64,000 bases of DNA, from positions 178,746,001-178,810,000 of the forward strand of contig JBNRSN020000003.1 in NCBI GenBank assembly GCA_051313645.2, given 5' to 3'. The DNA is from Centroscyllium fabricii (lineage: Eukaryota). Positions 1-58,570 of the stretch are shown piece after piece. The notes beneath the pieces are model-generated. The model saw only the letters and a list, made by a program, of their open reading frames with translations, was not told where the DNA came from and made no database searches. Each line of letters begins with the position of its first letter. Within the stretch, counting starts at the first letter, position 1. The translations under genes and the position numbers were made by a program.

Positions 1-3000
1 TGCTACAGCATCATGGGAAAGGTTGGTTTAGGATTTCGACACCAAATGTAAATTCAGACAACTAGCCAAACAGCGGGATGCAGAATGCGCACAAAGAGCA
101 GGATGATCTCTTTAGAAACGCAGTGAAAGAATGAGAAAACAGATTCCAGCAGGGCTTGGGTTCTGATGTAGTACTGGGACATAGTACTGGAAGGCTGCGG
201 ATTTAAATGAGTTGTCCCGACAGGTTTGGGTGTTGTATCTGGGCGGTAACAAGCAATAATTACAACAATTAAAGAAATATACAGTACAACGCACAGAGAC
301 TTAACTACTGCATCTGTGGTGTATTACTTCCCCCACCCCCTACCTTTACACTGAGAGCAGAGGCCTAAATAAGGATTTGATGAAATGCTTCACCTGTCAG
401 TGCAAATCCACTTAGTCAATATTCAGCGCTAAATGTGCCATATGTGAAAGCTTCAGGAGAAGGTTGAAAAAATTGAAATACACCCCTTGATAAAGCTAAA
501 CCAGTACAAGCACATCTGCTTCAATTAGAGGACTCAAATTAGATAAAATACAGCTATCAAGATGTTTACAAGACAAACCTGTTCTCTTTGAGGAAACACC
601 TCCTTTGCACCACAATGCACAAACAAGAATTGGATCTTGCAGCATCCTGCTCACTGGCAGTATAGATTTTTTGTTCAAAATCAACTTATCCTAAACCAAA
701 AAGGTAGTTTCATTTAAAAGGGTTTAATTGCTTCCAGTCTATTTGATAAAGAATAAACTGTTGTAGAAATACAGAGAGATTCAATGATATAATTCTAGAT
801 CTGTTCTTTTACATTAAATACTTTTTGGAAGTTAAATACAAACAAACACTGAGTTTTTAACCATACTTCAAGTTCAGCAACACTCATAGGAACACAGAAT
901 AAACAGACATTGAAACGGCAGGAGGAAGACAAGGAGTAATATGGTCTCAAATTCTCCAGTTACCAAAGGGCCACGAAGCATCCTGTTCCTTACTGAACAA
1001 AGCAATTTTTTTTTAAGTTAAAAGGCATCAGAGCTCATTTTAATTTGCACATTACAGTATAGCAATGGCAAAATAAATACCTATCTAGAGTGTATGCTAT
1101 ATTGTCTGTTTTCCAGTGACTAACTTATAGTTTCTATATACATTTTAATATTTTTATTATAGCTTTTTCACAGAGAACATAAAGGTTCCATTTCTAAATC
1201 AGCATTTAAACATTGTCCAGTGCTAGAAAAATTGAACAATTTAGCCAAAACCTAAAACAGATACAATTCACATCTCCCGCTAAACCTACAAATGAAACTG
1301 CAATCCTGACATGTGACCCCAGAGAAATGCATCACCCCTCCCCTCACGAATTTGCTTTCAGCTCTCAAAAAATGATACAAACAGCCCTATTGTCAGCCAA
1401 TCCACGTTTAATCCATGCATTAATGTCTGAATAGTTTTACAACCCTTCATTCAAATGCAAAGGCTTTGTTCAACTTGCCAAGACCATTTAGTTTGGATTA
1501 AAGGGAAAAAAGCAACAGACACACTGTACTAAAAACCATCACAGACACAAAGCAGCCTTTGGTATTACTGCTGTCCTTCTCCTTTAATACCCTTTAGTGG
1601 CAAATTATCGCTTGGCCTGATCTTCTGTTCTTCACTAACAAAGGTTATCCAATTTGAAGATCTCGCCCCAGTTAATGTTCCAAGCTGCTGAATTAAAATG
1701 CTGGTTCAAGCATCTATTTAACCTGCTGAATACGCTTTTTGAGAACATTTTTCACAATGCTTAAATTGAGTTTCCTTTAAAAATAGGATTTGTGCGTTTC
1801 AGCTGGTCAAAAGCACACACGCACAGTGCTTCATTCTAGTGTTTTCATTCCCCACACAAAAAAGTCTCAGTGTGGAAGAAAGCCTGGTTTAAAAAAAAGA
1901 AAGAAAATGTACAACCTACCACAGCATACATTTCTAAAGATCTCAAGTAATTCCATCATGTTTTTAGGAAACACAGAACTTGTCCATTTGGCAAACTGAA
2001 ATACCATAAATCATGTATTTTGTTAACTTAATACAGTTAAATGATAGTGAACAGTTGGCTTTGACATTTTAACAGATTACTATCCTTGTACTTGAAAACT
2101 TGACAGCTTTTATTTTACTTATGGAGTCGAACTCTGTACAGATACTCTCAGCCTTTGGCTTTCTATAGGGATTGGAGAGCTCGTGTTTGACAGGCTTTAT
2201 CTAAGCTCAAGGACGAGCTTTATGCTTAGCTGGCTGCAAGATTTGATTACACAGATGGATTTCCTATCTCACTTCCATGTTACTTCATTTTGGATCCTGT
2301 GTTCAACTAGAACTTTGCAATTTCTTCCATCAGGGTCATTTCTGCGACTTACAAGTAACAGATTCCGCTGATAGGGAAAACATACAATATGGAAAAAGAT
2401 CAAATTTGAAACTCTAATCATTCCCTATTGTTTATATAAATAAGCCCATAAATGTTGCCATAAATGTTGGTTACTAGTGAAAACCTTTAAACAAAAACAT
2501 TCTTTCAAAAACAGGAAACTCCAAATCTTCCCAGATCAAATATTTCTAATGGGCGTAAACTGTAGTCATTGTACTGAGAGTGGGTGTCATCTGAAGTTCC
2601 TTTACGGAATTATTTTTGCTTTTTGAAAAACACACAAGGGTGTGGATGACGAACTGACCTGCAATCTCTTTTTCAAAGTGATCAGCCTACCACAGGAAAA
2701 TATGGCTTAGTAATCTTTCCTAAAATGATCTACGATAAATTGGAATTAAGAATGTTATTGCTGTGGTTTGACATCCATATGAAAACACACCATTATGCTT
2801 CTAATTATCTTGACCCACATGGGAAAAGCAGGAATGTATTATGCGTTAATGATCACAACTAGAAGTCCTGCCTTTTCTTTTGCAAGGAACAGGGAAGATC
2901 CTCCCTGCAGCTTCACTATTAACATGTCTGTTTCCTGTCAGCCCACTCAGAGATAATGTCATTTATCTCGGAGAGGCACAAGACCAGTCATTAGCCTCAA

Positions 3001-7200: not shown

Positions 7201-7907
7201 GCCTCCTGCGAAACTCCATAGTCTTTGGATAATTACCAACATACCAGAAGGCTGGTTGCACACTAACAATGGAAGGCAAGGGCAAACTTCCCTTTCACAC
7301 TGGATCGACAAAATAGGGATCATTGGCCCGGACTGATGTTAATAAAATACCAGGCACCACATCGCCCATCGCTGCATTCCTAAAAGGCAAGACCAGTGCA
7401 GCTTTTCTGAAGGCGTTTAGTGTCGTATTTGATTACAAAGCACCTCCCCCACCCTTTAGGTAAACAGGAGTGATTACAATAACCTCATTTCTCTCCAGCT
7501 GCGGGTTTTTATTCCATTGTGTGTGTGTATGATCATAACACCAGCCTGTTACTTAACAAAAATAAGCGAAAATGTTGAGTTTTCTCTCTTATTCGAGCGC
7601 TCTAACGCCATATCATATATAGTACTGTATTTGCAGAAATGAATGATTATAATTCGCGCGTTGTTAGTGACAGTTGTCAACAGTTAAGCAGTACGACCAC
7701 AACCCCTTTTATTACCATCAACTCCAGGTTATCATTGAGGTGTGTTCAAATGAAGGCAGTAAAGTATTGCCCTGATATGTAAAAGGCACTATCATTGCTC
7801 TTGCATTACTCACCTCAATGCATCATTCACTTCATCACAAGTATGCATGAAATAACCCCCCCACCACCCCCACAAACCAACAACAAACAAAACAAAATAC
7901 GAGTTAC

Positions 7908-8840
7908 CTTTTCGGATTTCAATTTCTTGACGGGTCGGGCACTGTCCTCGTCATGATCTCCGTCCTCTTTCTTCACCACAATAGGGTTGCTTAATATTCC
8001 TGACTCCAGAGTACTTTTAATGTCCTGGATGCGGGACGCGGGCTCCCCGGCGCCTCCGCCGCAGTGGAAGGAGCTGCTGCCGCCCTTGGGGCCGAAGTTA
8101 AAGAGATGAGCGGCCGCTGTCACCGGGCAAGTGGCCGGTGCCGACATCGGGGGCTGGCCCGGGTGCACCCCCACATCGTGCTTATTACTATCCTTACGGG
8201 ATCTGGCAGCCTCTTTATCCCGCTTCGAGCCTCCCCTGCCCGAGCTCTTGCCCGGTTTCTCCTCTTTGCTTTTAGTGCAATTGCCAATCGTGTTGTTATT
8301 GTTAATATTATTGTTATTATTGCAACTACTGTTGTTGCTGCCGCTGCTGCTAACTGTTTGACCCAGGGCTGAATTCATGCCAGAAACCTCTCCAGGGCGC
8401 CCTTGGACCTCCTGCCTCTTGCCAGCACTGCTAATTTCAGGAATCCCATACAGTGAGGCAGAGGAGAGAGATTTATTAGCATCCTTGGAAGTTTTGCTTC
8501 TTTTCACTTTGGATTTGCCAGTCTCCTTGTGGGAATTACCTTGGGGAGGCTGGACGGAAGAGGAGGTGAATTTGAGGCTATCAGAAAGGGCTGCTGCTAC
8601 ATTAGCACCACTTGGAGCCAAACCCCCGCAGTCCTTGGTGCTGCTGGTTGCAATGGTGTTATTACTGGTGGTGTTGCTCGAACTATTCATCTCCAATTTC
8701 TGCCTGTCTTTCTCCAAATCGGCGTCCAAATCGATGATCAGATTCCCCACTCCAATTTCCCAGTCATCGCCACTATCGTAAGTATCAACCGCGTTTGAAT
8801 CAACACCTTTACTAGTAGCAATGGAACTGTTCACTGACAT
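7908..8840 (-). CDS. ZNF608: ZNF608 first coding exon (311 codons, phase-0 donor); the gene continues left beyond the window
   Basis: The translation contains [93 protein letters not shown] and KKLKSEK, matching the ZNF608 N-terminus as I recall it. The exon ends at AAG|GTAACT (7908/7907). The ORF tail down to 7827 is intron read-through. Confidence 0.93.
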
Positions 8841-8938
8841 CCTGAAGATGTGATCTCTTGGATAAAAATTGGATGAACTTCACTGCTTTGGGTCTGGGAG
8901 GACATTCGCTTCTTCGCCACGTGTTTCACCCCTCTCAT
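8831..8938 (-). other. 35-codon upstream ORF overlapping the ZNF608 start codon out of frame
   Basis: ATG at 8938 (second in-frame ATG at 8905) encodes [35 protein letters not shown]. Its stop TGA (8833-8831) lies just downstream of the main ATG. Confidence 0.55.
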
Positions 8939-11620: not shown

Positions 11621-11647
11621 AAAACAAATGGTTACAATGACTTTCTC

Positions 11648-11843
11648 CTTCATCCAGAACACGACTGCAGAGCGCACATATTTAGATTGACTTCGCCCTT
11701 CATCCAGAACGCTTAGGTCATGGGATTTGGATTTACAGTAAAATATATCCTCCATCCAGATCATTTATATCACGCCTATTTAAAGTTAAAGCAATCTGTT
11801 CTTCATCCAGAACATTTTGAATTACTTTCCTATTCATCCAGAT
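11648..11843. repeat. Array of five CTTCATCCAGAAC-like motifs with unique spacers
   Basis: CATCCAGA cores at 11651, 11701, 11753, 11804 and 11835; three are the exact 13-mer CTTCATCCAGAAC. Confidence 0.8.
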
Positions 11844-12309
11844 AAATTCAGGTTGCAAACAATATTTAGAATAACAGTCTTTTGTTTTAGCACCTCAACC
11901 AAAACAATACCTCACACAATTTTACTGAATATTACACTCTTAAACGTTGGACAATCGGAAACAGGATCACCATTCCTTGTACATAACTGGACACATTTTG
12001 AAATGACTTATTTCTCTAGAACATTTTGAATGCATGACAGATGGAAACATTAACTTTACTTTGTAGTGGAATCATTTCCCTCTATGGCGTTATGTGTTGT
12101 CCCTAAATTTAAAAATGTAAGAATTTTTACTGCTTCCGATATATTTTAAATGTTCAAAAGTTGGGAAAATGCAAGAATTATGTGCACCCAAACACCAAAG
12201 TAAAGGGGGAAGGTATCTTTGACCTGTGTCCCTTTAGCCAACCCTTGGAGAGCAGAGTGACTGACATTGAATCCAAAACAGAGGTTAAAAGCATCCCCAT
12301 GTTAAAGGT

Positions 12310-12447
12310 AAGAAGTCACACAACACCAGCTTATATAGTCCAACAGTTTTATTTGAAATCACAAGCTTTCGGAGCGTTGCTCCTTCGTCAGGTGTTGTGT
12401 GACTTCTTACATTTGTCCACCCCAGTCCAACACCGGCACCTCCACAT
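12310..12447 (+). mobile_element. Penelope-type pLTR insertion (short inverted arm plus tail) with an intact hammerhead motif
   Basis: TSD CATGTTAAAGGT (12298-12309 / 12448-12459). The inverted arm reads CACCTGACGAAGGAGCAACGCTCCGAAAGCTTGTG on the minus strand. Tail TTTGTCCACCCCAGTCCAACACCGGCACCTCCACAT. Confidence 0.75.
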
Positions 12448-12619
12448 CATGTTAAAGGTGCGCGGCTTGTTTCTCGTGTTTCATTACCTCAGGCCAGGTG
12501 GGTTAGATATTAAGAAAGGGTGTTAGAAACAATTTACTGCACTCCTTAAAATAAGGTTTGCTGTGTCTCTTTGTAATATCTCATTTCTGTCAATATTTAT
12601 TTTTGTGTGCCAGTATTTA

Positions 12620-13400: not shown

Positions 13401-15082
13401 CTCCGCTATTTGCCCTTGCCCTACGTGCTCCCTCCCCCACCCGATTTGTTAGACAACACATCAAGAGACAATATTTGCAGAGCAAACGTTTGCTGGAGTA
13501 CGGACCAGGCAAGAAGGGCCTGCACAACAATCAATGTTCCCCATATATATACAGATGTAAGTTTGGGGGCAGGGTGTGCGGAGGGTGCACTTGTACTCAA
13601 ATATCATCTCGTGTTCGCAGCGATCGCCGAATGCCAGCTGGTCTTTCGCCGAAGCGCAACCTGCATGCTTCATTCACATTGTACTCTGAACACATTCTGC
13701 AGAGGTCGTCGCCACTGTTTTCGTAATAGCGTCTTTTCGTTGTGTGTGTGTGTGGTTGATAACAATGTTTCTGTTTGGACATGTTGAGCGTGTTTTATTT
13801 TGAGCCCGTGGCAGTGCATTGAGCAGCGATCATTTCCTCATCCTTCCACTGAGCGTTTCTGCTGCAGAAGGCGGCCGAGTGGGGGATGGGTCCAGGCAAA
13901 GCTCTCACAATAACCTCGCCAGCGTCCGGAAAACCACATTAAAATATGTTTAACATTGAGCCATTGGTGTTTTCTGTTAATAAATCATTCTTATTTGTAC
14001 TGATTCATGTAAGTATCTTGCTAAAACAAAACCCTTTGAAGAGGGAATGTCTCACCCATTAAAATGATTTAAAAAATAAAGTTTTAATATGCGTCTAGCC
14101 AATGAATTGCAATCTATGGTGCACATCGTGATTGATTTATTAAAAATAAAGAGCTGGTCAAGGGAGAGCATGCTGATGGGGCACGTTATCATACGTCGTA
14201 AATCAGTTTTTTTCTCTTATCAGATTATAAACACAGACAATAATGATGTGAGGGAAAGGCTTAGGCTCACAGTTTAATTAGGCACAGATCCCTTTGTTGA
14301 CCTGCTTTGTAATACAAAAATAATAGAATAAACCAGAATGTGTAAAACATTCTTATCAGCAGTTTAGTTTTCTCTCCCCCACCCAAAATAAGAATAGATG
14401 CAGTTTACGTAGACTAATAGGTACACAGATTTGCCGATCACTCATTGCAATCATTTTCAAATATTACGTCTATACATGTCGCTTTTAACATCATCCAGTT
14501 TTATGCAACAAAGTACCAGAAATATATGGCCGCGATTTTTTTGTTTGTTTAACTGTTCGCATGCGAGGGAACATAAATCATTCTTAATGGTATTGATTCT
14601 TGAAAGATAGTAGTTTCTTATTTGTCCTTTAATTTATGTCTTCACAGGATAATTTATGTGCCACAAACGTTTTTGTGGCTTTACTTCTGTCGCTGCATGT
14701 GTGTACACAGACGCACACAGATATATCACATATGATGTAAACATAGATTGCAATCATATTATGAAGAGTTATAGAACGTTATAGTACAAAAACATGCCAT
14801 CCCATCCATCAAATCTACACCTGGATTTTACTCCAGATGAGTCACCTAGTATACTCTCAATTTCCATTTGCTCATTCCCCACATCCTTTAATATTAATTT
14901 ATTTCTTAATCAGCTATTTCCCTTAATTTATTAATACTCTTTCAACAATAATTTGTGTCAGACAATTCCACATTAGAACCACCCTCTGTGTAAAGAATTT
15001 AGTTTCTAATCTCCCCTGTAAAGTATCACATTATCGACTCCCATTTGCCTGTCTTCTGGGTTTGAGTGAGCTCCGCAACACC

Positions 15083-15376
15083 TAATAATAATAATAATTC
15101 AACTTTATTGTCATTATACAATGTACAAGTACATGAATAACGAAATGTGATCTTGCAAGCTCCCAGGAGTCCAGCAAAGCCGCTGCGTCTGTGTGCGCCG
15201 CCATTCCATCTTTCCATCATTCTGACAATCTTCAGCCAACCGCCCCTCCCCGGGGCTCCTTTCGTGACCTTCTGCACCTGGTATTCCCTGATGGTCACCC
15301 ATCCAAGTACTAACCAGGCCTGGCTCTGCTTAGCTTCCAAGCCTTAGCCAGTGACCCTGTCCCTAGTCCCAGGAAC
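15083..15376 (-). mobile_element. 5S rRNA-derived SINE (SINE3-like) with Rex1/Babar-type 3' tail, copy 1
   Basis: The minus strand contains GGAAGCTAAGCAGAGCCAGGCCTGGTTAGTACTTGGATGGGTGACCATCAGGGAATACCAGGTGC (5S internal control region) and ends AATGACAATAAAGTTGAA(TTA)n. Confidence 0.8.
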
Positions 15377-15429
15377 CTGCCAGAAGTAAACCTGGAGATC
15401 CTGACTCTCCACCCTCATGAATTCATTGT

Positions 15430-16038
15430 GTAAGAAGTCACACAACACCAGATTATAGTCCAACAATTTTATTTTAAATCACAAGCTTTCCGAGCTTTTG
15501 CCCCTTCGTCGGGTGAAAGAGAGAGACTGACTTAAAGAGCGCACATATGTGATGATGGGAGAAATCCGATATCTCCCACATCTCACCTCAGTAGAGATAG
15601 ACACACAAAGGCTTATTAACATATTTTAAGTGTTTCATTTAAACATAGCATATAGAGAGATAACAATGTGGTCTCTCCAGTTGTTTCACATCACACCTCA
15701 GCTGAGGGACATGATGTCCCTCAGCTGAGGTGTGATGTGAAACAACTGGAGAGACCACATTGTTATCTCTCTCTATATATGTTATGTTTAAATGAAACAC
15801 TTAAAATATGTTAATAAGCCTTTGTGTGTCTATCTCTACTGAGGCGAGATGTGGGAGATATCGGATTTCTCCCATCATCACATATGTGCGTTCTTTAAGT
15901 CAGTCTCTCTCTTTCACCTGACGAAGGGGCAAAAGCGCCGAAAGCTTGTGATTTAAAATAAAACTGTTGGACTATAATCTGGTGTTGTGTGACTTCTTGC
16001 ATTTGTCCACCCCAGTCCAACACCGGCACCTCCACATT
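15430..16038 (+). mobile_element. Penelope-type inverted pLTR pair (~570-bp hairpin) plus 3' tail, with a hammerhead motif in each arm
   Basis: Arms 15430-15712 and 15714-~16000 are near-perfect reverse complements around a single G (GGGACAT-G-ATGTCCC). TSD ATGAATTCATTGT (15417-15429 / 16039-16051). Confidence 0.85.
15914..15951 (+). ncRNA. Minimal type I hammerhead ribozyme motif
   Basis: TCAC-CTGACGA-A-GGGGC-AAAA-GCGCC-GAAA-GC-TT-GTGA shows stem I TCAC/GTGA, the CUGANGA core, stem II, GAAA and a palindromic AAGCTT helix-III region. This copy has one stem II mismatch. Confidence 0.7.
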
Positions 16039-17627
16039 ATGAATTCATTGTACCAGCAAAATGGCTCTGGGGTTTTAGTCTATGAACCAAAGTGTCCAAG
16101 ACAACATAAAATGGCTTCAGGCCCAAATATATTTTTTCCTGATTTATACTCAAATACTGTATTGCATATCTTACAGCAGTTGAAATTCCAAGTTAATGGA
16201 CTCGACTGCGTTCAACAACCAGATTTGTGCACCAGAGGGGTGACTCAGTAATCTGGTGTCCTCAGCGACACTCACATTGAGCGCACCTTGGGAAACAATT
16301 AATTCCTTTGCCACTTTGTCAATTGGTTCAATGTAATTGAAACAAAAATCCCATTCAGTTCTCATAAACAGCTGTTGACTGATGTTACCGGAAATATTTT
16401 TTATTAAACATTACTGTCTTCTGAACCTGTAAATAAAAAAATATATAACTTGTCTTATTTTTATGTATTGCTGCTTTGCATATTAATTTTAAATGTGACA
16501 GTCTATAATAGTGTAATGATTTAGAAAATATGAAGAAAATAATACTTTCCTTTGAGGTTTTTATCATCTTTGTTTTCAATACATTTTCTGTTGTATTTTA
16601 AACATGTTTATTTTTAAAATTCAGTTTAAAATTAATATTTTATTTTGCATTCCTATCTTTCTTGGACTACAGTAGATTCTGGAAAAAGTGGCAATAGGCT
16701 TACTCAAATTTCAGTTTTGAGGAAGATCTTTCACACCCCAAAGCTACATTTACAGGCTCTGAAGCAGTTTGATTTGAAGCCAGCCAGTGTAAATGCTATT
16801 TGAATCGCACATCTCTTCACTGCAGTACAACTCCAACTACATATTAGATTGTAAATGCATATTGCCCGCAAGTGCTGTCTGAACCCGGTGACACACCACA
16901 TGGTGCAATAAACCAGATACTTTTTCTTTCCGTTTCTGCGTTTTCCTTCTCAGTATCAGCATTCAACATGTCCAGTTATACTCTTATGCAACCAAATGCA
17001 GAATAAAGCTGACTTTACTCTGCCCCAATAATGCTTTGACCCAATCATCGAAAATCATCCTCTGCTTTACCCCTGTGAATTTTTAGCAATCATCTTTTAT
17101 GATTTCTCTTGGCATTTTAATGTCAATTTGTCCTGAATTGTGACCAGTTTATATTGTAGAGCTGCCCACTAGAAATCAAGAAGAGAGTGACCAAACTCTA
17201 TTCCCATAGGACCCTTGCTGCTGGCAGGCAGAGATTTGTATCTTACCAATCTGAGCTGGATTTAAATATAGGTTGCAGAGATGGAAAGACATCATGCTAA
17301 CCAACTAAAACACTTATTCTCCACGCACTTGTAAAGCTACAGGAGGAACAACAACTTGTACTGATATCGTGCCTTTCATGTGACAAACATTCCAAGGCAT
17401 TTTACAGGAGATCAAGGGATACTAAGCAGGAAATGGGAGAGCAATTAGGGGAGGTGACTGACAGAAGATATGGTTGAAGAGGTATGTTTTGAGGAGGCTT
17501 TTGAAATGGGGAGGTTTAGGAAGAGAGTTCCAGAATGCAGGGCGTGGTCCCTGGAGACACTGGCACTGATAGTAGAGGGAGGAGAGGACATACCATTGAT
17601 GAGTCAGAAGAACAGAGGATGCATAAT

Positions 17628-24984: not shown

Positions 24985-25095
24985 AAATTGAGGTTAGGAT
25001 CAGATCAGCCATGATCTTGTTGAATGGCGGAGCAGGCTCGAGGGGCCGATTGGCCTACTCCTGCTCCTATTTCTTATGTTCTTATGTTCTTATGT
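24985..25095 (+). mobile_element. CR1 3' tail
   Basis: GATCAGCCATGATC..GAATGGCGGAGCAGGCTCGAGGGGCCGA..CCTACTCCTGCTCC followed by (TTCTTATG)n. Confidence 0.75.
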
Positions 25096-25200
25096 CATCC
25101 AAAGCTTGGCTGCCCGTGTCCTAACTCGCACCAAGTCCTGTTCACCCATCACCTCTGACCTATATTGACTTCCGGTTAAGCAATGCCTCAAGTTTAAAAT

Positions 25201-25451
25201 TAGAAACATAGAAACATAGAAGATAGGAGCAGGAGTAGGCCATTCGGCCCTTCGAGCCTGCTCTGCCATTCAATGAGATCATGGCTGATCATCCAAACCC
25301 AGCACCCCGCCCCTGCCCTCTCCCCACATCCCTATCGAGCCTGCACCGACACATATCCCACCCTATCCCCGTAACCCCACATATTCAATCGCCCTAACAC
25401 TAAGGGTCAATTTATCAAGGCCAATCAACCTAACCTGCACATCTTTGGACT
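25201..25451 (-). mobile_element. HE1-like SINE, 3' part
   Basis: Reverse complement of the 3' half of the SINE at 59221-59620, with a (TTTCTATG)n tail. Confidence 0.8.
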
Positions 25452-26787: not shown

Positions 26788-29700
26788 TGTAGCGCCGGCA
26801 GGCCTAGGAACCACACGTGAGCCAGAGCTAGAGAGAACACAGCTTTAATCAACTAGTACAAAACAAGAAAGAGAGTGATCCACTCGAGACAGGCATATTT
26901 AAACGGTCCCGCGGTTGGTGACGTTATCGCGTCGGCCGACGTGATGACGTCGTCGCGTCACCCGGATGAGCGGGGCTTTGCTCCGCGGAGTCCCCGTGGT
27001 GGATTCGATGTCCCAGTGGGCGTACCGCGACACAGCTCCCCCCAGAATCCGTCCGGGAGAAATAGTGACAGTGTCTATGTATGCCGTTGGGGTGGCCGGA
27101 TGATGCGGCCGGACTGTGTTGCTAGTAGCCTCTGGTTCTGCGGTGGAGTGTGGGCGGGTTTTGTTGCGGGAGGGCGACCGCGTTGCGGTGGTTGTGCGGG
27201 GACCGTAGTCTCGCCCGCTATCACGTGTGCCGGCTTGAGCCGGTCTATTGTTACCGTGTCAGTCCTGTTACCCATTTGTAATTCGAAAGCTTTCGCTCCC
27301 ACCCGAAGCACTCTATAGGGGCCATCGTAAGGTGGCTGTAGTGGAGATCAGTGTCCGTCGCGCCGGACGAACACGAATTTAGCATTTTTAATGTTGTCCG
27401 GCACCCGAGCTGCCGGCTCTCCGTGCCGGGCCACTGGTAGTGGCTGGAAAGCTCGTGCCGGGTTAGCAAAATCTTTTAAATACTGGTCGGCTGACCAGGG
27501 AGCGTTGGGCTCAGCCAGGAACTCGCCCGGCACCGTTAAAGTTTGGCCGTAGACGAGCTCCGCTGCCGACGCGTTGAGGTCTTCTTTGACTGCCGAGCGC
27601 AGCCCGAGGAGGACCCATGGAAGGCGGTCGGTCCACGATGCGTCTTTTAGCGTGGCCCGTAGTGATGCCTTCATAGAGCGGTGGAACCGTTCGCATAGGC
27701 CGTTCGCCTGTGGGTGGTATGCGGTGGTTCGGTGTAGCGTTACCCCGAGGTCGCGGGCGATGGCCGCCCATAATGCCGACGTAAACTGGGGTCCTCTGTC
27801 GGAGGTGATGTCTGTGGGCACGCCAAATCGGGCGACCCAGGTGGCGATGAACGCCCTGGCCAAGTCCGTGGTGCCGGTGGCGGTGAGGGGGACTGCTTCT
27901 GGCCAGCGAGTGTTGCGGTCGACCATGGTCATTAGGTGCGTGTGGCCCCGGGATGGCGGTAGTGGCCCGACGAGATCGATGTGGACATGGTCAAAACGCC
28001 TGGCCGGTACTTTAAAATTTTCCAGCGGTGCCCTGATGTGCTTATGCACTTTGGAGCGCTGCCAGGCTATGCAGGAGCTGGCCCAGGCGTGGACGTCCTT
28101 GCGCAGGCCGCGCCATACGAAACGGGCCGATATTAACATAATGGACGCGCGGGCGCCGGGGTGGGACAGGTCATGGAGGGTCCTAAAGATATGTTGCCTC
28201 CAAGCGTGGGGCACGATGGGCCTGGGTTGCGGTAACAATACGTCGCAGCAGACGACGGTTGCAGCGGGGCCGTGCACGATATTGGCCAAGTGGAGGCCGG
28301 GGAGGTTAGTTGCTGCGTTGAGTAGGTCGGGGTCGGCCAGCTGGTCAGCGGCCAGCTGGGCGTAATCGACCGCCATTTGGGCGGCGTTAATGGTGGGGCG
28401 TGAGAGGCAGTCAGCGACCACGTTGTCGCGGCCGGAAATATGCTGGATGTCGGTTGTAAATTCCGACACGGCCGCGAGTTGGCGCTGCTGCCTGGCCGAC
28501 CAGGGTTCAGCGACCTTAGCCATCGCAAATGTGAGTGGCTTATGGTCGCTGAAGGCTGTAAAGTGGCGGCCCTCCAAGAGGAAACGAAAATGTCGCACCG
28601 CCAGATGGAGAGCCAGCAGCTCCCTATCAAAGGCGCTGTATTTAACCTCTGGGTGCTGGAGTTGCCGGCTGAAAAAGGTCAAGGGCTGCCACGAGTTGCC
28701 GGTCCACTGCTCAAATACGGCCCCGACCGCGTGGTCGGAGGCGTCGGTTGTGAGGGCTACTCTGTCGTTGGGCCTAGGGTGGGCTAGGAGGGTGGCGTTA
28801 GCCAGGGCGGTTTTAGTTGCGGTAAAGGCGGTGGCGGCTTCGGCCGTCCACTCGACCGCAGCCTTATTGGACTGCCCGCAGGTGGCCTGGTATAAGGGGG
28901 CCATGAGAGCGGCTGCTCCCGGGATAAAGCGGTTATAAAAATTAACCATCCCCAGAAATTCCTGCAGCCCGTTAATGGAGTGCGGGCGGGGGTATTCTTG
29001 TACCGCCTGCACCTTAGAGGGCAGGGGTATGGCCCCTGTTTGGGAAATGCGGTGGCCGAGGAAGTCAATGGTATCGAGGCCGAATTTACATTTGGTAGGG
29101 CTTAAGATAAGGCCGTGTTCGGTAAGGCATTGGAACAGGGTCCTGAGGTGCAGGAGGTGTTCCTGGGGGGAGGTGCTGGCCACGAGGATGTCGTCTAAGT
29201 AGACGAAGATGAACTTCAAGTCCCGTAGGACCGAGTCCATGAGGCGCTGGAAGGCCTGGGCTGCGTTTTTAAGGCCAAAGGGCATCCTAAGGAACTCGAA
29301 GAGTCCGAAGGGAGTAATGACGGCCGTTTTAGGAATGTCCGCCGGGTGCACCAGAACCTGGTGGTAGCCACGCACCAGGTCGATCTTAGAAAAGATCGTA
29401 CAACCCGCTAATCTGGCGGAAAAATCCTGGATGTGGGGTACGGGGTACCTATCCGGGGTAGTGGCGTTGTTAAGGCGGCGGTAGTCGCCGCAGGGGCGCC
29501 AGCCTCCGTCGGGCTTGGGGGCTATGTGGAGCGGAGAGGACCAGGGGCTGCTGGAGCGGCGGATTATACCGAGTTGTTCCATAGTGCGGAACTCGGCGCA
29601 GGCGATCTCCTGCTTGGCCGGGTCGAGCCTACGGGCGTGGGCATGGACGGGAGGGCCTGTGGTAGTTATAAAATGTTCCACCCCGTGTTTGGCCTTGCGG

Positions 29701-31234
29701 GCGGTGAACGTGCGGTTTGTTAGGGCAGGGAACTCTGCCAGGAGCGTGCCGTAGGCATCGGAGTCCCTGGAGCGGCATTGGGCTGCCGCGTGGGCCAGGA
29801 GTGCGGGCCCTGTGGAGCATGGGATGGTCGTCATGGTGTTTATATTTACCAAGCGGCGCCGAGTTACATCGACCAGTAGGCTGTAGGCGCAGAGGAAGTC
29901 TGCCCCGAGGAGGGGAGAAGTGACCTGGGCCGTTACAAAATCCCAGGTGTACGCGTGGCTTGCAAGGGTTATGGTTAGCTTGCGGGTGCCGTACGTTTTT
30001 ATATTAGAGCCGTTGGCTGCCGCTAGTGGCGGGCCCCGGATACCTCGTTTGGTTTCTGCAGGGGAGGCTGGCACGATGCTGTGCTGCGCGCCTGTGTCGC
30101 AGAGGAACCTGAGGCCTGTACCGCTGTCTGTGGCAAAGAGCAGTGCTCCTGTGTGGCCTACAGACATGGTGGGGGATGAGTTGGGCCGTGGCTTGAACGC
30201 GCATGGCTGGACGCAGAGGTGCGCTTTGTGTTCGAACCGCGTGTGGTAATAGCACCAGCCGGTGCTAGAGGGACGCGGTTGTCTGGGTGGGCGCGGGGCC
30301 CTGGGTTCAGGCGTAAAGTTGTGCCTGGGGGGTGATTGGCTGCGCTCTACCGATGCGGAGTTAGGGTCGCACGTGGTTGAGCGGGTGCGCTGCGCCTCCA
30401 TGAGCCTGTCGGCCTCCTCTCCGAGCTCGTCATCGGTCCGGTGGCCAAGGGCCGCCAAGGCCGGTTTGATGGCGCGGGGCAGTTTAAGGAGGAAGACAGT
30501 GCGGAAGAGGGAGGCTGAGTTGGGTGTAAGCGCTTGCAACTGACCTAAGAGGTCCGATGGGTCTGCGTCCCCGAGTTCAGGGAGGTCGAGGAGTTGGCAG
30601 TCGCGCTCAAATTGGGAGGGGGTAAATTTTTTGATTATCGCGGCCTTAAGCGTTTCATACCTGCCTGCGCTGGGCACGCGCTGTATTTTTGACCACATCC
30701 GATCAATCGTCGTCTGTGGTAGGGCTGTGAACACCAGGTCGTAGCGGTCGTCCCCGTGGATGCCATGTGTGCGGCAGCTGGCCTCGATACAGATGAACCA
30801 GGCCGCTGGCCGTTGCTCCCAGAACTCGGGTAGAGTCAATCCACGTCCGGCGTTCTGTCCAGCTCCCTGCTTTCGTGGAGCTTGGTTTCTTGGGTTTACC
30901 GTGTTCTCTGATAAAAGTCTTTGTCTGGTGGTTCCAGATCCCGCGGCAGCTTTTCTTCTCTGGAAGTCGTTCCAGTTCGGGGTCACCACTGTAGCACCGG
31001 CAGGCCTAGGAACCACACGTGAGCCAGAGCTAGAGAGAACACAGCTTTAATCAACTAGTACAAAACAAGAAAGAGAGTGAACCACTCGAGACAGGCATAT
31101 TTAAACGGTCCCGCGGTTGGTGACGTCATCGCGTCGGCCGACGTGATGACGTCGTCGTGTCACCCGGATGAGTGGGGCTTTGCTCCGCAGAGTCCCCATG
31201 GCGGATTTGATGTCCCAGTGGGCGTACCGCCACA
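26788..31234 (-). mobile_element. Full-length Gypsy LTR retrotransposon (4.45 kb) with tRNA-Trp PBS
   Basis: 245-bp LTRs at 26788-27032 and 30990-31234 (TG..CA, about 10 differences), TSD ATAT, PBS TGGTGACCCCGA, PPT GGGGGGAG. Confidence 0.95.
27075..30990 (-). pseudogene. Gypsy gag-pol polyprotein with one premature stop at 27348
   Basis: LPEFW gag, CYYH..HLC, LCDTGA protease, YLDD RT, TDAS RNase [21 protein letters not shown] integrase. The frame continues past TGA into PYDGPY..IDRLKPAH. Confidence 0.9.
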
Positions 31235-32299: not shown

Positions 32300-32404
32300 C
32301 TCCGAAAGCTTGTGATTTCAAATAAAACTGTTGGACTATAACCTGGTGTTGTGTGACTTCTTACAATTGTCCACCCCAGTCCAACACCGGCACCTCCGCA
32401 TCAT
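32300..32404 (+). mobile_element. Penelope-type pLTR 3' fragment plus tail
   Basis: CTCCGAAAGCTTGTGATTTCAAATAAAACTGTTGGACTATAACCTGGTGTTGTGTGAC..CACCTCCGCATCATG. Confidence 0.75.
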
Positions 32405-32480
32405 GATATAACCAAAGATGGCTAGGAAAACAAACACCCTACTTGAAGTGTCTTTAATTTACATGTTGTAAATATGATAC

Positions 32481-35559: not shown

Positions 35560-38500
35560 TGTTAAGTCTGGGGTGTCCAGACTTAATAACTTAGTCGGAG
35601 TCAGGAGGTAATCAACAAAGTAGGTGTTTAATCTATGGGAGAGAATTAAGACCTGGCTCAAAAGGCAACTGCCAACCGAACTAACATTCTAGAACACTGC
35701 AGAGAACACAGGAGTTACTGGTATTCCAAATAGGTGTTGGATTCCCTTAAAGGGGCCATACACCACAATCCTCCCCCTTTAAATCCCTTAGCGTTATACA
35801 AGGTATGAAAGCTAAGGGGGAGGTTACAACAACAATATAACTATCGTTAATAGAGAACATATATACATATATATCAATTCTTAATGTACATTATGTAGCA
35901 TGCACCCCAAAATAAACCACGTCACATTTCCTCAATCAACCTGTGCGGTTGCCGAGTCACCCGGTCGGAGCGACGTAGTTCAGGTGCAGGTACAGGCTGC
36001 GATTGTTGAGCAGCAATTCTAGATGAACGCCTGACCTCACTAGGCGGCGAGGGCCGAGGTACTACCGTTGGGGACTCAGGTACCAGGAAATCCGGAGTTA
36101 ACGGCTCGACCATCTCCGTAGGCAGTTCCAAGACTTGTTCCTTTGCAGGACTTGACACCGGTAAAAATGTCGTGGGCGGATGCACTGGCGTTGCTAATGA
36201 CTGATCACGAGAGTACGACATCTCCTCACGGCTCACATGTTCCGGAGGACTAGCTAATGGTTCCTGAAGCTGCGGGGAGCCCACCAGCTGGTCCACGTGG
36301 CGGCGAATTACTCCTTCGTTGGTGTCAATCGCATACATCAATGGTCCTTGCTTTGCCGCGACGACTCCAGATCGCCATTTCTGGTCACGGTAGTCCCGAG
36401 CAAGAACCTGATCACCCACATTAAAACTGCGCACAGTCTTTGGGGACAAATGTTGAAAAACCCTTTTATCCACCTCACGCTTCAGGTCTGGTCTCAATAA
36501 GTCAAGCCTGGAGCCCAGTCGTCTGTTAAAAAAGACCATTGCTGGGGACTGACCCGTTACTGTATGCGTAGCATTCCTGTAACTAAACAGAAAATTGTCC
36601 AATCTATGCTGCAGGGGCAAGTTCTCTAACCGCGAAGCTTTCAAGGACTTTTTGAATGACTGCACAAATCGCTCTGCCAATCCATTTGTGGCAGGGTGGT
36701 AAGGGGCCGAAGTGTAGTGCTTGATGCCATTTCCTTTCAAAAATCTCTTGAACTCCTCGGACACAAACTGGGGACCATTGTCCGAACACAATTGTTCCGG
36801 AAGACCATACCTGGCGAAAATTGTCCTCAAAACCACGATTGTTTTCTGCGCCGTAGTCGAAGACATTTTAATCACTTCCGGCCATTTGGAGTGCGCGTCA
36901 ACTACCACCAGAAACATGGATTCCTGAAACGGGCCAGCAAAATCCACATGAATCCTTTTCCATGGTGCCGACGGCCACTCCCACGGATGTACCGGAACCA
37001 CCGGTGGTGAATTCTGTACCAGCTGACAACCTTGGCAGTACTTGGTCAGCTCCTCAATCTGCCCATCTATTCCAGGCCACCACACAGAGGCACGTGCTAA
37101 GCTCTTCATTTTGGTGCATCCGAGATGCCCTATGTGTAATTCTTTCAAAATTACTTTTTGTAACTTCACTGGGATGACCACCCTGGATCCGCACATTAAG
37201 GTTCCCAGACAAGTAGACAGTTGTTCCCTCCTGGCAAAATACTGAGCCAGTCGTGGATCATTCCGAGCCGGCCAACCCTTTACTGTGGCATCATACACCA
37301 GTGATAACACTGGGTCATTTCTGGTTTCCCTCTCAATGTCCCTGTTGGTCACCGGCAAGGCTTCTACAATAGACGTATGGAAAAGGTCCGCAGCATCCAA
37401 TACGGTATCTTTACCTTTTACTGGCAGCGGAAGTCGTGACAAGCTGTCTGCGTTGGCGTGTTGTTTGGTCCCTCTGTATTGTATGTCGTACTGGTGCGCA
37501 CCCAGGAACAAAGACCACCTCTGCAATCGTTGCGCCGTCATCATTGGAACTGCCTTGTTTGGGTTAAAAATGGCAACCAAAGGTTGATGATCGGTTATCA
37601 GAGTAAATTTTTGTCCATATAGATAGTGATGAAATTTTTTTATGCCCCACACCAGGCTCAGGGCCTCCCGATCAATCTGTGCATAGTTCTTTTCAGCCGA
37701 CGTTAGTGATCTGGACGCAAACGCAATAGGTCGTTCGGCCCCTCCCGGAAACTGGTGAGAGAGCACCGCTCCAATGCCATAAGGCGATGCATCACAGGCC
37801 AGTTTAATTGGAATTGTAGGATCGAAATGTGCCAATATTTTCTCGGAAGTGATCAACCTTTTACTCTCCGCAAATGCCTTAACGCATTCTGGGGACCATT
37901 TCCAAGGAACCCCAGTCCTCAAGAGGTTATTTAGAGGGTGCAGAATAGTAGACAGGTTCGGTAAGAACTTGTGGTAATAATTAATCAGTCCTAGGTACGA
38001 GCGCAGCTTTGAAACAGTTTCCGGTGCCGGTGCATTTACTACAGCCTCCACTTTCTCTGGTGACTTATGCAACCCGGTCCTATCAATGATGTGGCCACAA
38101 TATGATAGCTTCTCCTGAAAAAATTCACATTTGTCCTTATTGGCCCTTAATCCATATTGTTTCAATCGCTGTAAAACTCGTTCCAGATTGTCCAAATGAT
38201 CCGTTTCTGTTCTTCCTGTGATCAAGATGTCGTCTAGGTAGCATTGGGTGCCCGGAATTCCTTGCAACACCTGCTCCATGGCTCTTTGCCAAATTGCCGG
38301 AGCAGATGCAATCCCAAATATCAACCTATTGTAGCGGTATAGACCCCTGTGTGTGTTGATTGTAAGAAATTGTCTGGAATCCACATCGACCTCCATCTGT
38401 AGGTACGCCTGTGCCAGATCAATCTTCGAAAAACGTTGTCCACCTGCTAAGGACGCAAAAATGTCTTCAATCTTTGGCAACGGATATTGTACTATTCGCA

Positions 38501-46679: not shown

Positions 46680-46969
46680 TAATAATAATAATAATAATAA
46701 TAAAACCTTATTGTCATTATACAATGTACAAGTACATGAACAACGAAATGTGATCTTGCAAGCTCCCAAGAGTCCAGCAAAGCCGCTGTGTCTGTGCGCG
46801 CCGCCATTCCATCTTTCCATCATTCCGACAATCTTCAGCCAACCGCCCCTCCCCTGGGTTCTTTTCATGACCTTCTGCACCTGGTATTCCCCCATCCAAG
46901 TACTAACCAGGCCTGGCTCTGCTTAGCTTCCAAACCTTAGCCAGTGACCCTGTCCCTAGTCCCAGGAAC
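46680..46969 (-). mobile_element. 5S rRNA-derived SINE with Rex1-type tail, copy 2
   Basis: Closely similar to 15083-15376 with the same 5' end GTTCCTGGGACTAGGG; 10-bp deletion directly after GGATGGG. Confidence 0.8.
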
Positions 46970-47276: not shown

Positions 47277-47620
47277 CATAATGTGGAGGTGCCGGTGTTG
47301 GACTGGGGTGGACAAATGCAAGAAGTCACACAACACCAGATTATAGTCCAACAGTTTTATTTTAAATCACAAGCTTTCGGAGCTTTTGCCCCTTCGTCAG
47401 GTGAAAGAGAGAGACTGACTTAAAGAACGCACATATGTGATGATGGGAGAAATCCGATATCTCCCACATCTCACCTCAGCAGAGATAGACACACGAAGGC
47501 TTATTAACATATTTTAAGTGTTTCATTTATACATAGCATATATAGAGAGAGATAACAATGTGGTCTCTCCAGCTGTTTCACATCTCAGCTGAGGGACATC
47601 AAAGCAATCAAAGGTGTTCC
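47277..47620 (-). mobile_element. Penelope-type pLTR plus tail, single arm, intact hammerhead motif (~47367-47404)
   Basis: Same sequence as the 15.4-16.0 kb arms. The minus strand reads TCACCTGACGAAGGGGCAAAAGCTCCGAAAGCTTGTGA. Confidence 0.8.
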
Positions 47621-47796
47621 AACATATCAACATATGATCTCAGGCTGGCTTGGAGTTCTACTGCCATTTCTTTGTGCTGACTCTTTATAGACACATTCGG
47701 GGAGCTTTTATCACATGACCTCCAACCACCCCATCCAATTAAATAGCCTCCCCCATCTCAAATATTTTTACAACTAATAAACAAAAGTGTTCAAAG

Positions 47797-49261: not shown

Positions 49262-51094
49262 GAAGAGTCTACGACAATCCTGGGAGGTTAGCACACCTAC
49301 CTGTGCCTGCTTTGCTGATGGTGCTATCTGACTCTCCTTGCACTCAATCGCTAACACAGACGCTGATGCCAGTTTATCCATTTATCCACGTCTTTGAGCC
49401 AAATACGGTTACGGAATAAAAACATATATATTATGATTGGTGCTTAGGCAAGCCTGAGGTTTCCGGACTCTCTCGGCTCTGCAGATTGGGTCTTGCAGCA
49501 ACTCAGGTTGCGCCTTTAACACAAATCCAGTTGCACCTTTGATGCAGAGGCAGTTTGCATTTGTAATATCCTCCAGATATAATAATGCAGCTAACTGATC
49601 TTCGCCGAATGACTTCATTGAGAAAATATCAAAATCATTTCATTCTGGATGGTTGTTTTGAATAAATAACATTCAAAAAAGTTATGCATTTCTTTGTAAT
49701 TTTAATTAGAATAAGAACTACACAACACAAGAATTTAACCCAAAGAGAAATTTAAGATTAATTGATAATGGGTATAATCTTGTCCAAAAACTGAGTGCAT
49801 ATAAAACCTGTCAAGACTTGTCAGATCACATGAAGAGCAACCGCTGTGTAAAATTTACCCTCAAGTGCTCCATTTTTGCTCACCAGACTGTGGTTAATGC
49901 TTGTTTTGTCCTGACTCTAGGTTTATTAATTGCTCATTTTTTTAATTGAGATAAATGGTACAGTACATCCAGTTTTAACAACTTTCCATACATCAGTAGT
50001 TTTACAAACGTCTTCTTGAATCCCCTGATTATTTCTCTAGTCAAAAACTATTCTGATATTTATACTTAATAGGACACATCTGCAAGTTAGTTCCCATTTT
50101 GTGGTTGGAGCAGTAGAGAATAATTAAATTATTATATATGTGAATACTTATAAAGTATAAGTAGTTTGTCGCTTAAATCTGGGATTCTCCCCTAGAGCTC
50201 TGACATTTCATGCATCATTGAAGTCTGATTTTATCCCACTCCACCATGCTTTTTATATTAATATGGCAATAACTTTGTTTTATACACTTCCAAAAAACGA
50301 GAAAAAAATATTCGACGCAGATACAGTAGTCATAGTTCATGAAGGGGTACTGTTATTATAAAATCATAAACTCAGCAACTTCTTATGAATTTTTGATAAG
50401 CATTGAGCTTAAAGGACCTAATTAACTTTGAAAATGCATCACCTTCAGGAGAAAAACAATTCTGTTTGTTTCTAAACTTGATGCAATTATGTAAATTATA
50501 TTGAAAACATTAAAGGTGATTCTCCCTCCATATAAAATCTCCGACCCACATTTGTGGCCACCCCCATGACATTATAGATCATCTCCTGTGGCTTCTCAAT
50601 TCAATCAAGGCTATTTCCAACCATTCCCATATATATCACCACGCAGACCCCACAATCTGACTTCAATCCCACTTCTTTCAGCACCACCCTATGGAAACAA
50701 CTCATCTTCAGTTACTTACAACTGCACTTTCAAACTCCCAACTAGAAACATAGAAACATAGAAGACAGGAGCAGGAGTAGGCTATTCGGCCCCTCGAGCC
50801 TGCTCCGCCATTCAATGTGATCATGGCTGATCATTCAAATTAAGTACCCTGTCCCTGCTTTCTCCCCATACCCCTTGATCCCTTTAGCCTTAAGAAATAT
50901 AGCCAACTCCTTCTTGAGTATATTTAATGAATTGGCTTCCACTGCCTTCTGTGGCAGAGAATTCCACAGGTTCACCACTCTCTGGGTGAAGAAATTCCTC
51001 CTCATCTCAGTCCTAAATGGCTTACCGCTTATCTTTATACTGTGACCCCTGGTTCTGGACACACCCACCATTGGGAACATCCTTCCTGCATCTA

Positions 51095-51193
51095 TGCCAA
51101 AAAGTCACACAACACCAGGTTTAAAGTCCAACCTGGTGTTGTGTGACTTTTTGCATTTGTCCACCCCAGTCCAACACCGGCACCTCCGCATTA
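51095..51193 (+). mobile_element. Very short Penelope-type inverted pLTR plus tail
   Basis: Hairpin AAAAAGTCACACAACACCAGGTT..AACCTGGTGTTGTGTGACTTTTT followed by the tail; TSD TTCCTGCATCTA. Confidence 0.75.
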
Positions 51194-51798
51194 TTCCTGC
51201 ATCTAGTCTGTCCAGTCCTGTTAGAATTTTATAAGTTTCAATGAGATCCCCTCTCGTTCTTCTATACTCCGGTGAGTACAAGCCCAATCGACCCAATCTC
51301 TCCTCATACGTCATTCCTGCCATCCCAGGTATCAGCCTGCTGAATCTTCATTGTACTTCTTCCATGGCAAGATCATCCTTCTTCAGATAAGGCAAACAAA
51401 ACTGCACACAATACTCAAGCTGTGGTCTCACAGGCCCTGTACAACTGCAGCAAAACATCCTTGTTCCTGTACTCAAACCCTCTCGCTACGAAGGCCAGCA
51501 TACCATTTGCCTTCTTGACCGCCTGCTGCACCTGCATGCTTACCTTCAGTGACTGGTGCACAAGGACGCCAGGTCTCGTTGCACTTCCTCTTCTCCCAAT
51601 CTATTCCCATTCAGATAATAATCTGCCTTCTTGTTTTTGCCACCAAAGTGGATAACCTCGCATTTATCCAAGTTATATTGCATATGCCATGCTTCTGCCC
51701 AATCACCCGACTTGTCCAAATCATACTGAAGTTTCTCGGCATCCTCCTTACAGCACACATGCCCACCCAGCTTTGTATCATCTGCAAACTTGGAGATA

Positions 51799-53042: not shown

Positions 53043-53396
53043 CAGGTTGAGCTTTGTTAATCCGGTATGGTCGGGCCAGCACTGTGCCAAATTTGTGAAA
53101 TCGCTGAATGATTGAAGCTTTGGCGGCACATGCGCAGACCATTCAAAATGGCCACCGTGAAATTTTGAATGGTCTGCGCATGCATTCGCCGAAGCATCAA
53201 TCGTTCAGGGAGGCCCGGGCATGCGCAGCCAAGTGCGGCGGCCATGTTGCGCATGCACAGACCAGTCGGGGAGGCCCGGGCATGTGCAGCCATGCGCGGT
53301 GGCCATTTTGCGCATGCGCAGGGCAGTCGGGGAAATCTTTGCCGGACGTCTGAAGCTGCCGGTTTTTCGGGTGCCGGATTAACGGTGCCCAACCTG
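53043..53396. mobile_element. Tigger/pogo-like MITE
   Basis: TA-CAGGTTG..TTAATCCGG ... CCGGATTAA..CAACCTG-TA, inserted in the CR1. Confidence 0.75.
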
Positions 53397-55209: not shown

Positions 55210-55342
55210 CATAATGTGGAGGTGCCGGTGTTGGACTGGGGTGGACAAATGCAAGAAGTCACACAATACCAGATTATAGTCCAACGGTTTTATTTTAAAT
55301 CACAAGCTTTCGGAGCTTCTGCCCCTTCGTCAGGTGAAAGAG
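55210..55342 (-). mobile_element. Penelope-type pLTR fragment plus tail, intact hammerhead motif
   Basis: TSD AGACATTTGGA. The minus strand reads TCACCTGACGAAGGGGCAGAAGCTCCGAAAGCTTGTGA. Confidence 0.8.
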
Positions 55343-55458
55343 AGACATTTGGAGATCACATGGATGAACTGCAACAATTGTACATCGCTGTCTGGCGTAA
55401 AAATAAAAAAGGGAAGGTGGCTCAACCATGGCTAACAAGGGAAATCAGGGATAGTATT

Positions 55459-58460: not shown

Positions 58461-58570
58461 CTTCGGATCAATTTAACTTCACTTTGCCTGAGGAAGGAGC
58501 AGCGCTCCAAAAGCTTGTGATTTAAAATAAAACTGTTGGACTATAACCTGGTGTTGTGTGACTTCTTACA
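58461..58570 (+). mobile_element. Penelope-type pLTR fragment, tail-less, with a mutated hammerhead core
   Basis: CCTGAGGAAGGAGCAGCGCTCCAAAAGCTTGTG (GAAA changed to AAAA); short repeat ATATTC at both junctions. Confidence 0.7.

Follow-up and report, generated by a model that had tools for sequence, protein, structure and literature searches.

The palindrome at 15417-16051 of the window, that is, of the whole 64,000-nucleotide stretch of DNA analysed here, is probably a dead, 5'-truncated insertion of a high-copy Penelope-like element (PLE), its palindromic form coming from two nick-primed cDNAs joined head to head at integration. That the insertion belongs to a PLE family is very probable, judging from its sequence anatomy: an inverted copy, an optional tail, a short duplication, a minimal hammerhead and a high copy number. 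Once this identity is granted, dual priming becomes a quite likely origin of the mirror arm. The insertion is real and of an ordinary, already known type, and it gives one mechanistic lead that can be tested. The locus itself is of little weight, as one of thousands of repeat fragments, without sign of function.

Anatomy of the palindrome and of its family

As originally predicted, a single-base-loop palindrome of about 570 bp is present. Its left arm, 283 nt at 15430-15712, mirrors its right arm, 287 nt at 15714-16000, as a reverse complement about the centre G15713, with 8 substitutions and one 4-nt indel over 287 columns and a perfect core of 59 nt on each side of the centre. The predicted unpaired tail of about 37 nt and the 13-bp target-site duplication were also found. 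The unmirrored tail (16001-16038) is 38 nt long, or 41 nt when the ATG common to tail and duplication is included, and the identical 13-mer (100%) stands at 15417-15429 and 16039-16051; a shared word of at least 13 letters occurred in 3 of 5000 random flank pairs from the window. At the junction, the antisense reading runs up to 15712 and the sense reading from 15712 on, leaving one shared letter, and G15713 is the family's own sense base. The features are as follows.

15417..15429, no strand: target-site duplication, left copy, 13 bp (chance-controlled repeat match)
15430..15712, minus strand: inverted, tail-less, 5'-truncated copy of the element's 3' end, 283 nt
15479..15516, minus strand: minimal type I hammerhead of the left arm, with U4>C in the core and G.G closing stem II, predicted dead
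15712..15713, no strand: head-to-head junction (upstream family sequence from copy D and contigs)
15714..16000, plus strand: direct 5'-truncated copy, 287 nt
15914..15951, plus strand: minimal type I hammerhead of the right arm, with intact core and a private G.G in stem II
16001..16041, plus strand: PLE-type tail, on a single arm only, its final 3 nt (ATG) common to the duplication
16039..16051, no strand: target-site duplication, right copy, where organism C contig alignments start exactly

The window holds six further copies of the family, and three of the seven copies (focal, B and E) are head to head.

12298..12461, plus strand: copy B, inverted tail-less arm of 87 nt, direct 20 nt and tail; 12-bp duplication
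32300..32408, plus strand: copy C, direct, tailed; no duplication found
47277..47630, minus strand: copy D, direct, tailed, with intact hammerhead motif; no duplication found
51085..51206, plus strand: copy E, inverted tail-less arm of about 37 nt, direct 25 nt and tail; 12-bp duplication
55210..55345, minus strand: copy F, direct, tailed, with intact hammerhead motif; 11-bp duplication
58487..58570, plus strand: copy G, direct, tail-less, ending at the same pre-tail boundary; 6-nt duplication

The duplications measure 13, 12, 12 and 11 bp in four of the seven copies, and two copies have none. The 6-bp duplication of copy G is at chance level, since such a 6-mer was seen in 1061 of 5000 random flank pairs. 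Inner ends vary between copies and 3' ends are fixed. All four tail-less ends (focal left arm, B, E and G) lie within about 2 nt of one boundary, and the tails of all six tailed copies end at, or at most 3 nt from, one point. The tail is thus an optional stretch of 38-41 nt on one end only, and two fixed 3' ends are seen both in the window and in public contigs.

Tails end at ATG, which continues as GCT in copy D and as GCTAC in some contigs. This tail-tip ATG may be where a missing ORF starts, an arrangement that would be unlike that of the Anolis element. Separately, the target letters just before the duplication resemble the last bases of the tail in the focal copy (15407-15419) and in copy B (12290-12301). 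This likeness, noted by eye in two copies and without a statistic, hints that the target end pairs with the template during priming. Two older self-inverted stretches, at 24992-25299 (71%) and 53101-53211 (80%), are unrelated to the PLE-like family.

We then turned to public contigs. Four contig runs of organism A (two samples of one study, possibly the source of the assembly) contain 0.90-0.92 of the words sampled from 13800-17400. Contigs of 4 of the 20 listed runs were compared with 15645-17000, a stretch that includes 68 nt of the left arm. In runs X1 and X2, 45,767 and 39,064 contig records matched. Dividing the summed depth by the unique-flank depth and by 31 (for overlapping words) gave a rough copy floor of about 1,400-3,000 for the inner part and more than 30,000 for the 3' part, the depth sums themselves not being copy numbers. 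Loose ends with unlike flanks were found behind 16037 in 399 contigs of X1 and 380 of X2. In run X13, from organism C, 70 loose ends lie behind 15997 and 34, 32 and 22 behind 16037, 16041 and 16042, and these pile-ups indicate two fixed 3' ends.

At the other end, 38 and 36 contigs have family sequence that goes on beyond the centre on its 5' side; their agreement of 0.75 and 0.76 is with the sequence upstream of copy D, and copy D itself extends 5' past the position matching the focal centre. The centre is therefore a truncation point. We had considered it as a fixed 5' end of the element, the copy D match starting at the same base, and rejected this because copy D and the 38 and 36 contigs extend upstream.

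Both samples have a 1641-nt contig over 16017-17000, which departs from the window at 0 and 3 letters; this difference between samples places the tail, duplication and flank on two haplotypes. It holds 22-25 tail letters, below the 31-letter bridging rule, and among the contig pieces listed none bridges tail and flank by that rule and none crosses the centre. In the contigs the tail is also found joined to itself. Joints from 16037 to 16007 with 9-nt linkers have a depth of 41-89, several times that of single-copy sequence, and each organism A run has 9 contigs in which 16005 and 16041 are joined on opposite strands. These self-joints (tail interval 16005-16041) may stem from tandem repeats derived from the tail, or from insertions lying tail to tail at other places in the genome.

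The original prediction had recognised the hallmarks of PLEs, an inverted pLTR plus tail and pLTR hammerheads. The anatomy and the high-copy family agree with it, but the arms are truncated pLTR ends and not whole pLTRs, as the family extends 5' of the centre. According to PMC8557442 and PMC3846280, inverted truncated copies, a one-end tail of 30-40 nt, short duplications and junction palindromes are PLE features. A palindrome of this kind had been called unusual, which finds no support: besides the three head-to-head copies in the window, at least nine further junctions occur in contigs, and PLE junction palindromes have been published (PMC3846280). For the human genome, PMC7999016 gives 718 near-perfect spacer-less palindromes longer than 200 bp.

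Across all 148 window frames of at least 85 aa, there was no GIY-YIG domain among the best five Pfam families per frame, and the Pfam reverse transcriptase (RT) matches belong to frames of LTR and LINE type that lie apart from the family copies. An ORF with RT and GIY-YIG would not be expected in a truncated copy. Scans with the tail pattern gave 0 matches in viral and 0 in prokaryote genomes. The metagenome scans gave 0 and 1 match, and the match, L001, was common only at a 21-mer and was taken as chance.

Origin of the inverted arm

How PLEs form inverted structures and tails is described as still undefined in PMC8557442. In the mechanism that we propose, the endonuclease of the element would nick both strands about 10-13 bp apart; one nick would prime reverse transcription at the tail-end start site and the other at the pre-tail start site. 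Both cDNAs would stop near the same template position, one RNA (or RNAs sharing a 5' end) being copied twice. The cDNA ends would then be joined via 1-4 shared letters, and the joined arms would afterwards decay neutrally. For the Anolis PLE, PMC11167929 reports that the purified protein cleaves and extends both target strands, that reverse transcription starts at two sites bracketing the tail, and that the protein is a predicted dimer, with the hammerhead dispensable in vitro.

The same PLE insertion could instead have gained its mirror arm by self-priming (fold-back) of one strand or antisense RNA, which we consider unlikely, though well ahead of the readings discussed further below. Self-priming has been proposed for PLE junction palindromes (PMC3846280); it adds a resolution at the tail boundary and a trimming of the tip. 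The number of letters shared at the junction is 1 in the focal copy, 4 in copy B and 3 in copy E, and the overlaps of B and E could be snap-back stems. However, in B (87 versus 20 nt) and in E (37 versus 25 nt) the arm without a tail exceeds the other in length, so fold-back of the tailed cDNA is impossible there without a later deletion. At the focal centre, the snap-back loop would have only 0-1 nt, the centre is the family's sense G, and a hairpin with a paired 3' end was predicted for 0 of the 8 cDNA end lengths folded. Moreover, the pre-tail boundary also ends plain direct copies, both copy G and the 70 X13 contigs; it thus acts as a start site, and the resolution step is unneeded.

At least nine junctions at other loci came from contig joints whose start lies in the compared stretch of the left arm and which allow a head-to-head reading, 8 among the 15 joints listed and 1 among the 12 listed in another contig table. 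Among the joints listed, the offset between the two arm ends is at most 40 nt in 7 of 9 junctions and exactly 0 in one. Against a uniform start, this coupling has a P of about 0.0006, a rough value that comes from a simple null and from the listed joints only. There is thus some indication that the two arm ends are coupled; central deletion of longer palindromes would look alike. The coupling fits one RNA copied twice, and it fits the self-priming of PMC3846280 equally well.

Several points count against the main reading. The near-symmetric junctions and the microhomologies of B and E fit self-priming or a later central deletion equally, and the polymorphic difference at 15999/15431 could mean two different templates. 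In addition, the RT and GIY-YIG ORF is unlinked, and copies C and D are without a duplication. In a literature search on twin priming with Penelope, no title was on the PLE mechanism; most subscription papers lay outside its scope.

Taking the dual-priming reading one step further, we tentatively suggest a paired integration of PLEs, in which a protein dimer, both target nicks and two internal start sites would have one RNA copied twice and so yield a palindrome; at present we would not call this probable. If it were true, genome data alone could settle the origin of PLE inverted structures. The family would have thousands of coupled-looking head-to-head junctions, and each insertion would from the outset be a hairpin template directed at the family from which it comes. 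Dual priming and self-priming can be told apart by outer ends that are fixed and inner ends that are coupled, and a genome-wide junction count can test this.

Hammerheads, age and genomic setting

The original prediction placed a hammerhead in each arm, with different lesions, and motif parsing bore this out. Each arm can be parsed as a 4-bp stem I, the core, an extra A, a 5-bp stem II, GAAA, and a palindromic AGCU that replaces stem III. In the left arm, the core has C for U4, and stem II is closed by a G.G. In the right arm, the core is intact and a G.G lies inside stem II, through a private change at 15937. The motif was parsed in all six copies or arms examined and is intact in copies D and F. 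None of the 15 Rfam matches at E<=1 is to a hammerhead family, so the call rests on motif parsing with the features listed in PMC4209133. The Rfam matches to miRNA families were all below gathering scores and reflect the hairpin. Folds of single hammerheads were no better than shuffles (z -0.9 to +0.7, four copies of the focal subfamily), and a 3' stem-loop joining pre-tail and tail was weak (z -0.99).

Two subfamilies differ at linked positions, B, C and G versus the focal copy, D and F, and these positions include a stem II pair that is A-U versus G.U, a covariation in stem II between the subfamilies. In organism C contigs, the type of B, C and G predominates.

In the folded transcript, the pairing probability of hammerhead stem II was 0.0 on both strands, and the long duplex predicted for the transcript would exclude the hammerhead fold. 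According to PMC4209133, such minimal hammerheads need a second sense copy. Because of this need and because one of the cores is mutated, ribozyme activity at the focal locus is unlikely. We regard the hammerheads as pLTR passengers, predicted not to work here.

We next considered the age of the insertion. The orthologous flank of organism C aligns exactly from 16039, with none aligning into the tail, in both of its runs. Its contigs have 25 and 335 unaligned letters before 16039, and 335 letters counted back from the left duplication lead to 15082, the end of the neighbouring 5S-like repeat. The related organism C thus appears to have an empty site, the upstream letters of its alignments not being displayed. 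Its runs give no cover at 15645-15874, where absence from contigs is not proof of absence. The flank diverges from organism C by 3.6-4.1%, and the arms diverge from each other by 2.8% (95% interval 1.2-5.5%), which is not significantly different. By this sequence comparison, insertion after the split from organism C is compatible with the data.

The two arms differ from each other at 8 of 283 positions, and from the unlinked copy D at 7 of 282 and 9 of 278. The right arm has 3 private changes, where the other letter makes up 97-99.9% of the family depth. The left arm has 4 private changes relative to copy D, plus the deletion. The remaining arm difference, 15999/15431, is a polymorphic position in the family. 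We found no compensatory change in the arms and no sign of gene conversion or of selection keeping the hairpin; being no more alike than either is to copy D, the arms show no trace of the hairpin being maintained. A palindrome of 283 bp without a spacer can last long enough for about 1.4% change per arm.

The palindrome had been described as lying about 4 kb upstream of the ZNF608 promoter. An exon-like ORF at 7827-8879 on the minus strand has 'zinc finger protein 608-like' as its first Atlas match (0.93, of low recognition value), with ZNF609 clusters next (0.91). Going by the first match, the host is a chordate. By eye, a CCAAT/TATA-like site near 11.3 kb is a putative promoter, and the insertion lies about 4 kb upstream of it. 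The ZNF608-like ORF and the distance thus stood, but the promoter is only putative. Just upstream of it on the minus strand, at 11640-11770, a short motif, TTCTGGATG followed by purines, is repeated about five times.

That the locus now serves as a transcribed source of hairpin RNA (siRNA or editing) against the family, or as a cis-regulator of the ZNF608-like gene, is very improbable. In its favour, the transcript from either strand is predicted to form some 295 bp of duplex (-519 kcal/mol), the family offers thousands of targets, and both samples have the junction of tail and flank, on two flank haplotypes. However, the arms resemble each other no more than unlinked copies do and have no compensatory change, the insertion is apparently absent from organism C, and the neighbouring 5S-like repeat, a sub-threshold Rfam match on the minus strand, faces away. 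The ideas of endo-siRNA and of ZNF608 gene control find no support.

This 5S-like repeat is about 300 bp long and present in two copies, 92% identical, at 15083-15392 and 46686-46969. It has a TAA-repeat end, and its head is 5S rRNA-like (Rfam 30.6 bits, below gathering); it is likely a 5S-derived SINE. Each copy lies within about 300 bp of a copy of the PLE-like family. The window also contains three stop-free LTR-retrotransposon pol frames of 1232-1388 codons (27351-31046, 35925-40088 and 41389-46113) with RT, RNase H and integrase by Pfam. Direct repeats of LTR retrotransposons are 96% (26788/30990) and 99.6% (40801/45825) identical. These near-identical repeats point to recent insertions upstream of the ZNF608-like gene.

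Alternative identities and known relatives

It is highly improbable that the insertion is a MITE or fold-back DNA transposon, or a tandem retrozyme monomer, and not a PLE fragment. Long inverted arms with a duplication would suit such elements, no coding partner was found in the window frames, and type I hammerheads also occur in retrozymes (bioRxiv 10.64898/2026.07.22.740005). Four of the seven window copies, however, are without an inverted arm, one end of the insertion has a non-mirrored tail, 3' ends are fixed but 5' ends and junctions are not, and duplication length varies from 11 to 13, all of which speaks against a MITE; against a retrozyme, no head-to-tail tandem hammerhead units were found at the focal locus. 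Equally improbable is an assembly or fold-back artefact of a single-copy insertion: no contig among those listed runs across the centre and most of the left arm lies outside the compared stretch, but the duplication closes both sides, the inverted arm shares its end boundary with B, E and G, and the independent private changes on both arms (3 on the right, 4 and the deletion on the left) argue against it.

Among known systems, we compared the insertion with Pen2a and other endonuclease-containing PLEs of Adineta vaga (PMC3846280; scheme in PMC8557442), which share its 5' truncation, inverted 5'-adjacent copy and one-end tail of 30-40 nt, and also a duplication of 8-13 bp, a head-to-head junction palindrome and microhomology at junctions (PMC3846280). 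Unlike in the Pen2a-type PLEs of that paper, there is no ORF between the repeats here, so that the whole insertion is a palindrome. The mirror spans 283 nt per arm with a 1-nt centre, whereas the junction palindromes given in PMC3846280 are 18 and 38 bp.

Poseidon of Anolis carolinensis (PAc, PMC11167929) likewise has two fixed ends bracketing the tail, an AT-rich target and a hammerhead about 50-90 nt upstream of the ends. In PAc, however, hammerhead stem II is where the ORF starts, and this ORF includes the tail, whereas here the only ATG near the end is the 3' tip of the tail; PAc is likened here by description and not by sequence.

The minimal (dimeric) type I hammerheads of metazoan PLEs, as described in PMC4209133, include those of Schistosoma with a stem II of 7-8 bp, versus 5 bp here. 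Pairs of hammerheads on opposite strands, 100-700 bp apart, are noted in the same paper. Compared with its hammerheads, the two focal ones carry lesions and point in opposite directions, which precludes a cis dimer. Finally, non-LTR retrozymes are non-coding and PLE-related and carry a type I hammerhead, as here, but they are head-to-tail tandems, whereas this element is head-to-head and dispersed (bioRxiv 10.64898/2026.07.22.740005).
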